From an uncultured Flavobacteriaceae bacterium (GTDB taxonomy: Bacteria > Bacteroidota > Bacteroidia > Flavobacteriales > Flavobacteriaceae), in the NCBI GenBank assembly GCA_947501845.1, contig CANMXP010000007.1:151381-215380 (forward strand): a DNA stretch of 64,000 nucleotides, written 5' to 3'. The notes beneath the pieces were generated by a model that worked only from the letters and a program-made list of their open reading frames with translations, had not been told where the DNA came from and did not search any database. Positions within the stretch are counted from its first letter, which is position 1. Every line of letters starts with the position of its first letter. This document shows positions 35,296 through 49,271 of this stretch, one piece after another. Made by a program: the position numbers and the translations under genes.

Positions 35296-36357
35296 TCAAC
35301 ATATTTGACTGTAAAATAGACTTCTTAATTCCACAAGAAGTCTATTTATCTTTTCAAGATCAGGTCTGTTTTGTAAACTAGAATCAGCATACCGTTTTAC
35401 TAACTCTTTTTTCCGCTCTTCAGCCCAAAACACCAACTCATCATATTCATATTTACCTTGCTTGACATCTAGCAGAAAAGCTCTATCAGGACGCATAACA
35501 TGAATAATCTTTTCGAAGGCAATTTCCTTAGCCATATGCAATAGTCTAAACGTATGCATCATATTTTTAGAATCGTAATTTTTACCGTGAGACACAGTTG
35601 TTTTATAACGTTCTTCATTGCGCTTGCCTACCCAATCCCAATATTCTTTATACTTTTTACAATATGTTGAATATCCATCTTTGTTAAAGAAAAGCATTCC
35701 TATTGCTATTTCTCCTTTAGGAATAGAACTTAGTGCAATATCATTGGCTATTTCACTTTTTATAATGCCTTTATAAGGAATCTCTAAGCTATGATATAGA
35801 TTATTGCAATCTTTAAGATGTGAAATATTTGCTATACCGCAATTTTCTTGTTTTATCTTTTTAGCATCTAAAAATGTTTTTAAAGACATTGTTTTGCCTT
35901 TTTCATATACCAAACAAAAATCTAAAACCGACTTACGTTCTTTTTCAACAGGATTCACAATTTTCTTTTCCAAACCTCTTGCTTTTTTAATTTGAGCATA
36001 GGCATAGTTAGCAAATGACTTTTCACATTGTTTAGACAAAAAATACTCGAGCTTTATCTCATCAAATATAGGATGCTTGTAAAGCACACATTCTTCAGGT
36101 ACATTTAATAACTCTAGGATATTAGGGTTGTTTTTTGAGCAGAGTTCTATAAATTTTCGTAGCTCATAATAGACAATATCATTCGTTTCATTGTTTATTT
36201 GACCAATATAATCAAGCGAATAAAAGCTTTCTTTAGGAAGAACGAACACACCTCTTATATCAGTATCTGATGTAGGTGTGTCCAATCCATAAGCTCTACT
36301 CCCACTTATACATTCAAAAATGATATGCCCCGAAGCTTTTAATTCTTCTAGTGTCAT
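35296..36357 (-). CDS. Pol-beta-superfamily nucleotidyltransferase (RlaP-like, 'RNA-ligase-associated' NTase family)
   Basis: GSRAYGLDTPTSDTDIRGVF (GS…D.D NTase motif). 353 aa. Confidence 0.65.
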   Translation of the reverse strand: MTLEELKASGHIIFECISGSRAYGLDTPTSDTDIRGVFVLPKESFYSLDYIGQINNETNDIVYYELRKFIELCSKNNPNILELLNVPEECVLYKHPIFDEIKLEYFLSKQCEKSFANYAYAQIKKARGLEKKIVNPVEKERKSVLDFCLVYEKGKTMSLKTFLDAKKIKQENCGIANISHLKDCNNLYHSLEIPYKGIIKSEIANDIALSSIPKGEIAIGMLFFNKDGYSTYCKKYKEYWDWVGKRNEERYKTTVSHGKNYDSKNMMHTFRLLHMAKEIAFEKIIHVMRPDRAFLLDVKQGKYEYDELVFWAEERKKELVKRYADSSLQNRPDLEKINRLLVELRSLFYSQIC

Positions 36358-37103
36358 TATATTATCGTTTTTAAAAACAACTCGTTAAAGTCATCTGGAT
36401 TAGATTTTTTATTAACTAATTTATTTTTAATTCTATTGTTTTCGTTTACTATATCTCTTACTAAATGTATTAAATCCACTTCTACAGGATCATTACTTTT
36501 CTCTATACGCTCACTCTTTAACGCAATAAGTGCATCTAATTTGGAATGATAACTTGTATCTATTAATGAATACATCTCTCTAAACAACACTGGTGGAATA
36601 GTTTCATTTTTATAAATCCAGTTTGCACAAAGTGCTGTGCGTATTGCATAGAAGAAACTTTTTAATGTCATCTTCTCTGAACCTAATGTCTCTTCAAAAT
36701 TTTTATTCATACTATGAAAATGATAAAACCCAGAAACTGGATTAAAGTTAGCATTGGCTACTTTCTTTATCTCATTTAAGAAATCATTATTTGCACGATA
36801 TACAATTGGTGAAAATAACCATCCTGTAAAAGATGCATTTGACTTTGCTAATAATCGTAATGCCTTTCGGATATCCCAACCAGAACCATCCAAATCATCT
36901 TCCGTCATAAACTGTATCGTATCTGCTTGTTCCCAAAGGTTTAAATACCAATCTTTAGAATGTTTGTACACAAAGCGTATATCATAATCAGAATCTGGAG
37001 ACGCAAAGCCCCAGGCTCTACTTCCCGATTCTACTGCGAACAAGATTTCTATATTTTTATCCTGTTCTATTTGTCTTAATTTGTCTAATATTTTCGCTTT
37101 CAT
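36357..37103 (-). CDS. Pol-beta-superfamily nucleotidyltransferase (RlaP-like), paralogue of the downstream gene
   Basis: GSRAWGFASPDSDYDIRFVY. 248 aa. 1-nt overlap with the next NTase gene. Confidence 0.65.
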   Translation of the reverse strand: MKAKILDKLRQIEQDKNIEILFAVESGSRAWGFASPDSDYDIRFVYKHSKDWYLNLWEQADTIQFMTEDDLDGSGWDIRKALRLLAKSNASFTGWLFSPIVYRANNDFLNEIKKVANANFNPVSGFYHFHSMNKNFEETLGSEKMTLKSFFYAIRTALCANWIYKNETIPPVLFREMYSLIDTSYHSKLDALIALKSERIEKSNDPVEVDLIHLVRDIVNENNRIKNKLVNKKSNPDDFNELFLKTII

Positions 37104-37139
37104 AATTTTACTAATTTATACTTCAAAAGTAAAATCATG

Positions 37140-37160
37140 GTACGCAGTTATTCTGCGTAG
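37140..37160. promoter_or_regulatory. Palindrome gtacgcag-ttatt-ctgcgtag upstream of the NTase operon. Divergent relative of the ...ttttgcgtagt... element seen at 40301, 44511, 49358
   Basis: Read directly. Confidence 0.35.
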
Positions 37161-37241
37161 TGAATATTATTTGTTATATTACCTTTAAATACGCTCCTTA
37201 ATAAAACAAAAATGCGTCAACCTAAATCAACGCATTTCCTA

Positions 37242-47178: not shown

Positions 47179-47469
47179 GATATAATGAGATGTTAGATGT
47201 TAGAGGAAAGACATAAGACGTTCCTCATAAAATATGTTTTGTATGGTATTTCGGAAAGTGTTGCCTTAAAAATTAAGGCATAAAAAAAGTCCAAAACGTT
47301 TTGGCTTCGGACTCTTTTAATATGATAGATGAAATTCTATGTAATAGGAAAGTAGTCTCGAAGCGTATGCACAATAGAACCTGGTTCTTTTTGTGTATTT
47401 TTATTTAATTGATACTTGAACATGTACTTCGTTTTTAGTTGAAAAGACCTTTCGACTGCGCTCAAGGTG

Positions 47470-47725
47470 ACAATTCAAAATTAATAATTTGTTTTGCTTT
47501 ATTGCGATGCAAAGATGATATGCATTTTTTAATTACGCAAGAAAAAAAATAATTTAATTTACTAAAAATCAAATAGTTAACTTGATTTTAAACAATAGAA
47601 TTTCTGTCCGCATTATGCAGATATTGCAATTAATTGATAAACGGATATTTAGCTTTAAACTCACATGTTGCCAAATCGGAAAAAAATTATAAAAAAAAGC
47701 GTCCAATTTCTTGGACGCCTTTTAG
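47470..47725. repeat. Copy B of the ~270-bp intergenic module (see 43380-43670). Ends in the hairpin aaaaaaaagcgtccaa-tttc-ttggacgc
   Basis: Alignment with copy A. Confidence 0.55.
47691..47722 (-). terminator. Hairpin + U-tract terminator (minus strand) downstream of the second RtcB gene
   Basis: gcgtccaa/ttggacgc stem, A8 tract on plus. Confidence 0.6.
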
Positions 47726-47888
47726 ATTTTATACCTTTTTAAAGTTTTCACCTATTTCATGTGTAGTAGAAATAGCTTTTCAGCATCCTTTTTATGTTTA
47801 ATTAATATATCACTCATAGGTTTAAACTTTTATTTAATTTGTAATTGTTGAGTGCAAATATGCATAAAATTTAGCAAACTTTCCAAAA

Positions 47889-49271
47889 TCATTTTCTTTT
47901 CCTCTTCTTCCAAGGTGCATTCTTCTTCCAATCACCTGCCATAATGCAACCATAAGGCATCACCTCATCAATCACTTTTCCTAAACAAAACTCTTCCATT
48001 TGATGTCGAACCGTTTCAGCATTTTTATAAGCACTTGGCAATTCTGTAATATCAATCTCTTCAGAGAAAAACCGAATATCTAAGCCTTTGGTTTCTTCAT
48101 TAAAAATCTCTTGAAACGTTCCTGTTTTACTTTTTCTATGTTGCGTTCTACTCACATTTCGTCCTGCCCCATGTGGTGCAAAACCTAAATTGTTATTTGT
48201 GGTATCACCTTCTACAATTAAAACTGGTTCAGACATGTTTAAAGGTATTAACCTTGGCCCTGTAATGTCTGGCATAAACTTTTTATCCAATGGTGTTGCT
48301 CCTTTAGCATGGTAAAACAAATCTCCATCTTTAAATACGAAATTATGTTCATTCCAAAATCTATCTTCTTTTTTAACTCCCAATTTCTCTAAAGTAGCAT
48401 CATGAAGACATTCGTGGTTCTTTTTTGTCCACTTTCTAATGATTTGCAAAGCTTCCCAATACTGTACTCCTTCTCCTGTATCAAAAGGAATCCACGCATT
48501 TTGCTTTAAGGTGTCTGGTGATAGTTCCTTTCTAAAACGTTCAGCAACTTTCATCCCTCTAGAATATAAGTTAGCTCCAAAACCTCTACTTCCATGGTGC
48601 GTAACCATCATGGTATTTCCTGTATTTTTAGATTTACCAACAAACAAAAAGTGATTTCCATCGCCTTGAGTTCCTAAATGAGACCGCGCTGCCGAAATAC
48701 ATTTTTGGTCATTTAAGAAGTCGTTTGATTCAATCTCTTCCAACAAATCCATTGGGAATCTAAACTGAGAATCTCTATCTCTTCCTCCTGGTCCAAAATG
48801 CGTTATACTATGTGCGGTATCTAAAACATCTTTAGGATTCGCTTTTCCAAAATCAGTTAACATCACCGAACAACAAATATCTGCGCTATGCATCCCTGGG
48901 TGAATCGCATTTTTAGCAACAACAACACCACCAACTGGAATGGTTCCTGTTGAACCTGTAGGACAAGCATCTGGCATAATAGCCCCATTAACCAAAGTTG
49001 GTGTTTTCATCAACAACCCCATTGTTTCAATAACCGAATTTACATTGGTTTCTTCTAATTCATTTTCTGCTTTAATATTTATTGAAAAAGGAATCGTTTT
49101 ATTATGCAATGCTATTGAGTCTGGAGACTTAAACTGCTCTAAATAACTATTCAACTCATCTCCTTCTAATTCATTATCATTGATATGCTCTAAAGCTTCC
49201 TTAAACCATTTTCCTGATCTATAACCCATTTCAATTAATGTATGCCCTGTAATTTTTTTTGTGTTTTCCAT
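47889..49271 (-). CDS. Divergent RtcB-family paralogue
   Basis: 460 aa. [10 protein letters not shown] (in place of MPDAHSG), [25 protein letters not shown]. Same order of motifs as RtcB. Confidence 0.7.

Follow-up and report, generated by a model that had tools for sequence, protein, structure and literature searches.

A modular island in a Flavobacteriaceae chromosome combines RNA-repair genes, a tRNA array, tRNA mimics and a divergent GOLLD RNA with predicted leader-peptide attenuators

We analyzed a 64,000-nucleotide (nt) stretch from an uncultured Flavobacteriaceae bacterium (contig CANMXP010000007.1, positions 151,381 to 215,380), referred to here as the window, in which a block of minus-strand genes between positions 35296 and 49271 combines RNA-repair enzymes with a transfer RNA (tRNA) array, two tRNA-like noncoding RNAs (X and Y) and a copy of the large RNA GOLLD. 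The island is a larger, differently regulated assembly of known RNA-repair systems, and it is probable, though with considerable reserve, that it is a modular chromosomal island responding to damage of the translation apparatus. The gene inventory given in an earlier reading of the sequence alone (the original prediction) stands: genes for two RlaPs, an SPFH protein, AlkB, DUF458, a TPR protein, PrfH and two RtcBs all lie on the minus strand where they had been placed, and Pfam profiles recover each of these families apart from a clear TPR match. Related loci, designated by L numbers where they need to be told apart, come from a PrfH scan restricted to one genome per species (80 loci fetched of 521 confirmed relatives) and from a metagenome scan for SPFH (80 loci fetched of more than 560 relatives, with 58–92% identity).

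The gene for an RtcB2-type RNA ligase (45787–47178; Pfam RtcB, E 8e-83) overlaps prfH (45092–45787; 231 residues; Pfam RF-1, E 5e-24) by 1 nt, as the proposed translational overlap of the two required, and the pair constitutes a putative RtcB2-PrfH module (i.e. an rtcB gene that adjoins or overlaps a prfH gene encoding an RF-1 domain). The length of PrfH is compatible with the sizes of a C-terminal-tail subfamily that has been reported in Flavobacteriia (PMC12829566), a comparison made by size. A TPR-like protein with weak Pfam TPR/HAT matches (44562–45101), an accessory of PrfH-RtcB, follows, and its gene is kept after prfH in L122–L129 and in L131; RtcB2 itself is 74–92% identical in L121–L123, L126 and L127. 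Two conserved island proteins without a Pfam match are present in relatives. One, of 229–231 residues, is encoded by an open reading frame (ORF) that overlaps the rtcB2 start in L121, L122 (6665–7354), L126 and L127 and is deleted in the window; the other, of 610 residues, is encoded between GOLLD and the divergent rtcB in Bizionia (L122:17627–19459).

At the other end of the island, the gene for an SPFH/Band-7 (slipin-like) protein (37242–38342; PF01145, E 1e-29) is followed by two genes for RlaP-family nucleotidyltransferases. RlaP-B (36357–37103; 248 residues) is full length (PF10127, E 3e-65), and RlaP-A (35296–36357; 353 residues) has an N-terminal RlaP domain with a partial PF10127 match (E 4e-27) and a C-terminal extension; the two are kept together in L121, L125, L205 and L216. 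The divergent RtcB (47889–49271; 460 residues; Pfam RtcB, 116 bits) is encoded 9.5 kilobases (kb) from the SPFH gene in the window and directly downstream of it in L124, L125, L202, L205 and L207. When aligned to P. horikoshii RtcB it retains the metal-binding Asp and Cys, the GNHF and HxGSRG motifs and the HGAGR histidine, and because these catalytic motifs are intact it is probably an active ligase. An SPFH gene beside a ligase and/or RlaP gene, accompanied by a conserved tRNA-like RNA, is the arrangement that defines Band-7/SPFH-RtcB-RlaP systems, and it is present here.

Between these two modules lie three further protein-coding genes. The product of 40356–40868 (170 residues) is, by its match to PF13532 (2OG-FeII_Oxy_2; E 2e-23, profile positions 49–194), an AlkB-type 2-oxoglutarate-Fe(II) oxygenase; in L214 this slot is likewise occupied by AlkB, and in L122 by an Rnl2 RNA ligase. 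A DUF458 (PF04308, RNase-H-like) gene at 40985–41466 gives a Pfam match of E 1e-15 on the ORF at 41152–41466 and is interrupted by a frameshift near 41170, with residues 1–98 in one frame and 101–161 in another (tblastn); DUF458 closes the tRNA array in L122, L126, L216, L233 and L241. The third, at 43854–44492, is a variable cargo gene encoding 212 residues, and the HEPN-like fold of its structural model together with an Rx4H motif makes the product a probable, still putative HEPN protein, with no significant match of the model to the PDB by Foldseek. HEPN RNases leave ends that RtcB can join, and the island could accordingly be imagined as an abortive-infection or toxin-reset device in which HEPN cuts host tRNA or ribosomal RNA (rRNA) upon phage attack and the ligases later reverse the damage; the WYL regulator adjacent to the island, of a type typical of defense loci, would fit such a role. 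However, the HEPN-like gene is absent from every related PrfH or SPFH locus examined, where its slot holds a phosphoesterase or an exonuclease, and PADLOC matched no defense model to the island proteins other than WYL, making this explanation very unlikely.

The tRNA array contains 19 co-oriented genes packed into 1.7 kb (41500–43194), the number counted in the original prediction, although they are of two kinds: 16 are canonical tRNAs and three carry insertions in the anticodon loop (ARAGORN, Rfam; ARAGORN -i). With many co-oriented, tightly spaced and non-periodic genes and a patchy distribution among relatives, it has the features of a long tRNA array (L-array). Syntenic arrays are present in L121, L122, L126 and L216, as variants ending Gln-His-Phe-DUF458, and no array is present in L123, L125 and L127; because these close relatives lack it, the array is probably accessory rather than housekeeping. 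The 16 well-formed tRNAs do serve 15 amino acids, as might be expected if this were the housekeeping tRNA cluster of the genome, but tRNAs for Ala, Gly, Thr and Trp and an intact tRNA-Arg are missing, several of those present score low (36–44 bits), the whole array sits behind a leader ORF and terminator, and close relatives have either no array at this locus or a different set of genes. A housekeeping origin is thus extremely improbable.

The three insert-bearing tRNAs fill the three gaps in the array, with inserts of about 50–70 nt on the 5' side of the anticodon. Two are tRNA-Arg genes identified with ARAGORN -i, Arg-UCU with a 50-nt insert (42419–42541) and Arg-UCG with a 53-nt insert (41735–41860), and the third is a type-II Leu-UAA-like tRNA (42968–43120), the homologs of which in L122 and L125 are called by ARAGORN as Leu-UAA with inserts of 48–55 nt. 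We also considered 42968–43120 as a tRNA-Ser(UGA) with a long variable arm, and this was ruled out by the homologs, which show an anticodon-loop insertion. The Arg insert consists of UUAGCUCAY, a hairpin, GUGAAU and a small GCNNNGC hairpin, and it recurs in the window (twice), L210, L216 and L229 even though the tRNA bodies differ. In viral contigs the motif has 20 matches, none of them inside a tRNA, and we regard these as chance matches for that reason. The possibility that a tRNA insert is a known ribozyme or group I intron was discarded, as no such Rfam match at E<=1 was found within 38200–44000.

These inserts raise the question of whether the tRNAs that carry them are precursors, such that the island provides protein-dependent tRNA splicing and resealing with an RtcB ligase and repairs external damage only secondarily. 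The conservation of the Arg insert in different tRNA bodies, the lack of an intact tRNA-Arg in the window's array, and the role of RtcB as the splicing ligase of archaea and animals (PMC8421152) are consistent with this. However, we identified neither a splicing endonuclease homolog nor a bulge-helix-bulge motif, and single-sequence folds of the two window Arg inserts are not significantly stable (z -0.8 and -0.4). Moreover, many islands have RtcB and no insert-bearing tRNAs, other arrays carry an intact tRNA-Arg(ACG), and the HEPN gene is unique to the window locus. A splicing role as the main function is therefore quite unlikely.

A feature that the original prediction missed is that the array and rtcB2-prfH are preceded by paralogous leaders. 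The ORF-free 710 nt upstream of rtcB2 (47179–47888) is paralogous to the 660 nt upstream of the array (43195–43853), and within these lie the regulatory regions that we refer to as class A (array; 43195–43666) and class B (rtcB2-prfH; 47179–47723), with leaders homologous to class B in L121, L126, L223, L232, L238 and L240. Both have, on the minus strand and in the same order, a strong insulating terminator (43641–43666 in class A and 47694–47723 in class B), a conserved AT-rich block, a promoter (43421–43452 and 47509–47540), a short ORF (40 codons at 43274–43396, and 28 codons ending ...LRDYFPIT at 47337–47423), and an intrinsic terminator that would act as the attenuator (approximately 43219–43255 and 47282–47320). 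The promoters are of the Bacteroidetes type (TTG, about 19 nt, CATnTTTGCA), and the relaxed promoter pattern has just these two matches in the window.

All 15 homologous leaders contain an ORF of 25–54 codons ending 17–28 nt before the terminator stem, and the 3' segment of the ORF contains a complement of the terminator's 5' arm. This antiterminator complement is located 10–35 nt upstream of the stop codon in 12 of the 15 leaders, compared with 1.3 expected from shuffled sequences, although the shuffle test overstates independence because the leaders are related sequences. The antiterminator pairing also covaries, with GGAAGG:CCTTCC, GGGAGA:TCTCCC and GGGAG:CTCCC in one class, and GCTTCG:CGAAGC, GTTTCG:CGAAAC and ACTTCG:CGAAGT in the other, and in folding calculations the nascent leader RNA prefers the antiterminator, with the terminator forming once the end of the ORF is blocked. 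An ORF, an intrinsic terminator and a mutually exclusive, overlapping antiterminator together make up the predicted architecture of a leader-peptide attenuator. A ribosome reaching the leader stop codon would mask the antiterminator segment so that the terminator forms and the unit is off, whereas stalled or failing ribosomes would allow the antiterminator to form and the island to be transcribed; induction of the island upon ribosome stalling is the prediction that follows from these leaders. Class A peptides include 17–20 different amino acids in 40–54 residues and have no run of a single regulatory codon, and this varied composition suggests that the leaders respond to translation failure in general and would be appropriate for a general sensor.

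The approximately 2 kb of ORF-free DNA between the AlkB and SPFH genes had been described as tRNA-like, and two tRNA mimics are indeed present there, but the block is GOLLD rather than generic tRNA-like DNA, an identity that had escaped the original prediction. GOLLD is located at 39305–40190 (minus strand) and is about 890 nt in total, with the 3' domain (39305–39782) defined by RF02032 and the 5' domain (about 39783–40190) by homology. The RF02032 match spans all 416 model positions (1–416) at E 2e-36, with a score of 133.1 bits that lies below the Rfam curated cut-off of 150, and we treat the RNA as a putative divergent subgroup of the family; homologs in L122 and L125 score 135 and 134 bits respectively, and both domains are kept in L122, L125, L202, L215, L216 and L224. 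The large size, the variable 5' domain, the tRNA array upstream and a permuted tRNA-like module in the linker (approximately 39650–39715) are all as expected for GOLLD, and a tRNA-like linker insert has been reported for other GOLLDs (PMC12990946). A blastn comparison of the window GOLLD with 50,697 phage records gave no match, and an nhmmer profile built from phage GOLLDs, which was too weak for the purpose, scored the window at only 49 bits. GOLLD lies among RNA-repair genes in seven Flavobacteriaceae-type loci, the window included, and its neighbors differ by locus, with AlkB, Rnl2 or a TPR-exonuclease pair upstream, and X, Y, another tRNA mimic or the 610-residue protein downstream.

The two tRNA mimics lie between GOLLD and the SPFH gene, also on the minus strand. 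Noncoding RNA X (39084–39287) has a 7-bp acceptor stem, a D-arm and a T-arm, with a domain of about 120–190 nt in place of the anticodon arm, and ARAGORN -i calls it a tRNA with a 120-nt intron. It occurs in 20 loci, and 24 of the 41 predicted pairs show compensatory changes among 18 sequences. Noncoding RNA Y (about 38740–39056) is composed of a 5' multi-stem domain followed by two circularly permuted tRNA-like modules, each in the order T-arm, closed 'acceptor' hairpin, D-arm, the second having an anticodon-like hairpin. According to the covariation, the strand following each T-arm is paired with the one that precedes the next D-arm. In the 78-pair structure of Y, 94.9% of cells are paired compared with 39–46% in slid controls, 55 pairs show compensatory changes, and none of 500 shuffles reached the observed values. 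Homologs of Y lie directly upstream of SPFH in 44 of the 66 SPFH loci with enough sequence. Y shares only its permuted tRNA-like topology with YrlA (RF02553), against which its best score is 33.6 bits (36.5 in L125) relative to a cut-off of 69, and no Ro/TROVE gene is present. X and Y fall below the threshold of every Rfam 15 family, Y having weak YrlA and tRNA matches only, and because none of X, Y and the tRNA-Arg insert reaches any of these thresholds we consider all three to be candidate new RNA families.

The GOLLD/noncoding RNA-SPFH unit has its own promoter and leader (40190–40355, minus strand), which contain the palindrome ATTGCGCAAT and a -7-like ATATTTGC and are kept in 10 loci; the promoter differs from those of classes A and B, and the leader directly precedes Y in L124 and L205–L207, where GOLLD is absent. 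Palindromic half-sites of the TTGCGCAA type (ACGCAA..ATTGCGCAAT) are located at 40309–40345 (minus strand), and also at L233:3007 and L246:5498. They are a candidate operator, perhaps bound by the product of the WYL/WCX-domain gene located just outside the island (51113–52129, plus strand; Pfam WYL and WCX, PADLOC WYL). WYL homologs with 50–83% identity flank many PrfH and SPFH loci, and by analogy with RtcR in the Citrobacter rtcR-slipin-nucleotidyltransferase locus we infer that the WYL protein is a candidate transcription factor of the island, including the GOLLD/Y-SPFH unit. In that Citrobacter locus (L304; Citrobacter freundii NZ_CP151862.1, 281561–285514) rtcR is divergent from the slipin (SPFH) and nucleotidyltransferase genes, and a 449-nt unannotated gap lies upstream of the slipin gene, where a tRNA-like RNA would be expected.

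A neighborhood comparison of the kind proposed with the original prediction shows that many related loci bring together the same parts. The closest PrfH among the 80 fetched is 84% identical and comes from an uncultured Flavobacteriaceae genome, and the seven closest loci (Flavobacteriaceae/Flavobacteriales, 61–84% identity) are mosaics downstream of prfH-TPR, five of them having subsets of the island's accessory parts there. L121 has 12 tRNAs and both RlaPs; L122 (Bizionia) has 15 tRNAs, DUF458, the Rnl2 RNA ligase, GOLLD and the divergent RtcB; L124 (Thalassobellus citreus) has Y, SPFH and the divergent RtcB; L125 (Winogradskyella) has GOLLD, Y, SPFH, the divergent RtcB and both RlaPs, with no array; L126 (Tenacibaculum) has 15 tRNAs, DUF458, Y and SPFH; and L123 and L127 have RtcB2-PrfH-TPR only. 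Further occupants of the slots elsewhere are Rnl2, a metallophosphoesterase, an RNase T-like exonuclease, and a nucleotidyltransferase with a Zn-ribbon protein. Among the 73 more distant PrfH loci there is one comparable island, in the gammaproteobacterium Candidatus Endobugula (L162), where 12 tRNAs are interleaved with RtcB, HNH, SPFH, a phosphoesterase, a CCA-adding enzyme and RtcB-PrfH. In the SPFH loci with enough sequence, X is present in 14 of 44, 16 of 48 have an RtcB gene no more than 1.5 kb downstream, and at least five tRNAs are found upstream in 10 of the 28 loci with at least 6 kb of upstream sequence. The clustering of these parts is not chance, and since the related loci are mosaics of the same parts we argue that they are functionally linked.

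Both GOLLD and long tRNA arrays are characteristic of phages and move horizontally, and the content of the island varies strongly among relatives. The array, DUF458 and GOLLD could thus be a decayed phage or mobile cassette at a recombination hot spot, their juxtaposition with the repair genes being meaningless. We compared the island with at least 120 viral loci picked with a GOLLD 3'-motif pattern, which was validated by the finding that all 25 picked phage loci checked contain bona fide GOLLD (172–332 bits). In 120 phage GOLLD loci, tRNAs are present in 76, and tblastn with the island proteins finds DUF458 homologs in 6, phosphoesterases in 4 and HNH in 2. The DUF458/PF04308 homologs (27–34% identity) lie 1–7 kb from GOLLD in L014, L015, L026, L031, L060 and L115, and DUF458 is the sole island protein common to phage GOLLD neighborhoods; a separate DUF458 scan of viral contigs gave two loci, both without GOLLD. 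The tRNA and DUF458 counts are as the decayed-cassette explanation would predict. Against it, neither integrases nor transposases nor phage structural genes were seen in the annotated part of the window (about 19.7–63.6 kb), GC content reveals no island, and no phage record resembles the window GOLLD at the DNA level. The paralogous promoters and attenuators of the array and rtcB2-prfH, the recurrence of the linkage in many genera and in L162, and the filling of slots beside the array and GOLLD by different RNA-repair enzymes in each locus are likewise difficult to reconcile with a meaningless juxtaposition. We consider a decayed cassette unlikely. SPFH is essentially absent from viral contigs, with one weak partial match (38% over about 60 residues). 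A transfer-messenger RNA (tmRNA) gene lies about 0.1–3 kb from phage GOLLD in 7 of the 25 checked loci according to Rfam (L001, L014, L017, L019, L023, L032 and L041) and in 8 more among the 120 according to ARAGORN (L009, L022, L026, L034, L048, L060, L081 and L114), a second setting in which GOLLD adjoins a ribosome-rescue function.

Taken together, these observations favor an island whose role is to respond when the translation apparatus is damaged, and we can propose what its parts may do. The PrfH-RtcB2-TPR module would, by homology, release the peptide from ribosomes with cut 16S rRNA and then reseal the rRNA, and broken tRNAs are the predicted substrate of the SPFH-RtcB-RlaP module with X and Y, in which RlaP would rebuild lost 3' nucleotides and RtcB would reseal 2',3'-cyclic-phosphate and 5'-OH ends, with the SPFH protein and the tRNA mimics as scaffold or cofactor. 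The array, which ends in DUF458 and has a variable slot for AlkB or an Rnl2 ligase, may supply spare or decoy tRNAs, and the insert-bearing tRNA-Arg and tRNA-Leu could be reserve versions of tRNAs that nucleases target, either resistant to cleavage or open to activation. GOLLD with its linker tRNA-like module would be the island's fourth kind of part. The original prediction had proposed a counter-measure made of repair enzymes plus replacement or decoy tRNAs; the recurrence of the parts supports this idea, which is only partly supported overall.

What GOLLD might contribute is a more tentative matter. GOLLD is said to have been described by Weinberg and colleagues in 2009, and we know of no function assigned to it since. 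It forms an RNA-only nanocage by cryo-electron microscopy (Kretsch et al. 2025), and one speculative possibility, to which we give limited credence, is that it is a multivalent display of tRNA-like modules that serves as a decoy or scaffold in the translation-damage response. The cage would show 10–14 copies of the tRNA-like module after stalling de-represses the island and, with the SPFH assembly, RtcB and RlaP, would form either a high-avidity decoy for tRNA-targeting nucleases or a platform for resealing broken tRNAs. If so, the same logic would explain the tmRNA genes beside phage GOLLD.

Several observations weigh against the damage-response interpretation, or against a part for GOLLD in it. 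The array lacks the tRNAs listed above, intact tRNA-Arg among them, DUF458 is frameshifted in the window genome, the leaders are related sequences, and transcription-translation coupling, which attenuation needs, is to our knowledge not established for these bacteria. GOLLD falls short of the curated cut-off and is found in only 4 of the 80 metagenomic SPFH loci (3 of the 44 with at least 2.5 kb upstream, plus the shorter L215), and the GOLLD-carrying loci are homologous to each other and not independent events. In L124 (Thalassobellus citreus, 11245–12176) a GOLLD core of about 1.1 kb is precisely absent, with the leader and the downstream Y retained; given this loss and its rarity in SPFH loci, GOLLD is a dispensable, facultative part of the module. 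Finally, tblastn found no homologs of RtcB, RlaP, SPFH, AlkB, PrfH or Rnl2 in the 120 phage GOLLD loci, indicating that the link between GOLLD and repair is lineage-restricted.

The island nevertheless places GOLLD in a conserved non-phage setting in Flavobacteriaceae, with two loci from named genera (Bizionia and Winogradskyella), one of them an isolate assembly, and so gives it an experimentally tractable chromosomal context. Its neighbors there have defined biochemistry (RtcB, PrfH, RlaP and Rnl2), the predicted inducing signal is failed translation, and L124, as a natural GOLLD-deletion variant, would be a useful comparison strain. If the leader attenuators operate as predicted, they would couple RNA repair and spare tRNAs to the state of the ribosome in a new way, one that differs from both RtcR/CARF in enterobacteria and TrcR in Anabaena.

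The regions flanking the island contain other genes of note. A minus-strand NAD/ADP-ribose cluster (19731–26656) encodes an NrtR-type Nudix regulator, a phosphoribosyl pyrophosphate synthetase-like protein, two Macro domain proteins, a metallo-beta-lactamase fold protein, an ADP-ribosylglycohydrolase and an adenylosuccinate synthetase-like protein; by-products formed when 2'-phosphates are removed from RNA are also among the substrates of Macro domains. A four-gene plus-strand operon (26941–35249), convergent with the RlaP-A gene, ends with a 1640-residue DUF3686/DUF7902/AAA_5 ATPase, of which L121 has an 88%-identical counterpart at the corresponding position; the operon has no PADLOC match and may be an uncharacterized defense or repair system. 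On the other side, a subtilase (S8) gene (49470–51080, plus strand) with weak PADLOC matches to the 'subtilase' and IetS models separates the island from the WYL regulator, and related loci do not conserve it. Further downstream, 55115–59695 (plus strand) encodes an unusual fusion of 1526 residues, in which alpha-2-macroglobulin domains (MG2, A2M and TED) are joined to a TonB-dependent receptor Plug.

The original prediction considered the island not to be a described system. For the modules and several of their pairings this is largely wrong, as they have already been published; novelty does hold, within the literature that we searched, for the occurrence of GOLLD among RNA-repair genes and its link with RNA repair, for attenuator control of rtcB or prfH, for the tandem permuted structure of Y, and for the tRNA-Arg insert. 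The RtcB2-PrfH module (Burroughs and Aravind 2019; Tian et al. 2022, 2026) resembles that of the window in the RtcB-PrfH overlap followed by TPR. Its function has been characterized (PMC9304027, PMC9223846), rescue and repair of ribosomes cleaved by rRNA-targeting RNases having been shown for the E. coli and C. gingivalis proteins only, and accretion of TPR, nucleotidyltransferase and Zn-ribbon genes has been described (PMC6514570). The window version lacks the nucleotidyltransferase and Zn-ribbon genes found in relatives, and it adds a predicted leader-peptide attenuator and a physical union with the array, GOLLD and the SPFH module.

The Band-7/SPFH-RtcB-RlaP system likewise has a tRNA-like noncoding RNA before SPFH, and RtcB and/or RlaP after it. 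Band-7-RtcB with a 'band 7-associated tRNA', and YrlA sometimes beside Band-7, are attributed to Burroughs and Aravind 2016 in a passage quoted in bioRxiv 10.1101/312249, and characterized RlaP enzymes add one or two nucleoside monophosphates to RNA 3'-OH ends (PMC12776372). Module 1 of Y has the same order as YrlA (anticodon-stem strand, T-arm, closed acceptor, D-arm, anticodon-stem strand). The island differs in having two different mimics, X and Y, in that Y is a tandem of two permuted modules, and in having a WYL regulator in place of RtcR.

The array is similar to the L-arrays of Santamaria-Gomez et al. 2021 (PMC8421152) in being a variable array of supernumerary type, with 12–24 tRNAs and RNA-repair neighbors. 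L-arrays are horizontally spread, in Bacteroidetes among other phyla, have neighborhoods enriched in RNA-processing genes, adjoin rtcB and are co-induced with it by translational stress, and have been proposed to act as sponges for toxin RNases (PMC8421152). The flavobacterial array differs in its predicted leader-peptide attenuator, and no HNH endonuclease was found in flavobacterial arrays by tblastn, whereas L162 has one.

GOLLD inside tRNA arrays of mycobacteria and phages has also been described (PMC6582537; PMC12990946), and the window RNA is like RF02032 in its match to the whole 3' domain, its size, its tRNA neighbors and its tRNA-like linker insert. It differs from phage GOLLD in scoring 133 rather than 172–332 bits, and in being chromosomal and among RNA-repair genes, with no phage genes nearby. 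Ribosome-mediated attenuators include the trp, thr and his leaders and antibiotic-sensing leaders, such as that upstream of P. aeruginosa armZ. As in these classic attenuators, the predicted island leaders have a short ORF before an intrinsic terminator and, embedded within the ORF, a complement to a terminator arm; unlike them, they have no single-codon run, and they would control tRNA and RNA-repair genes.

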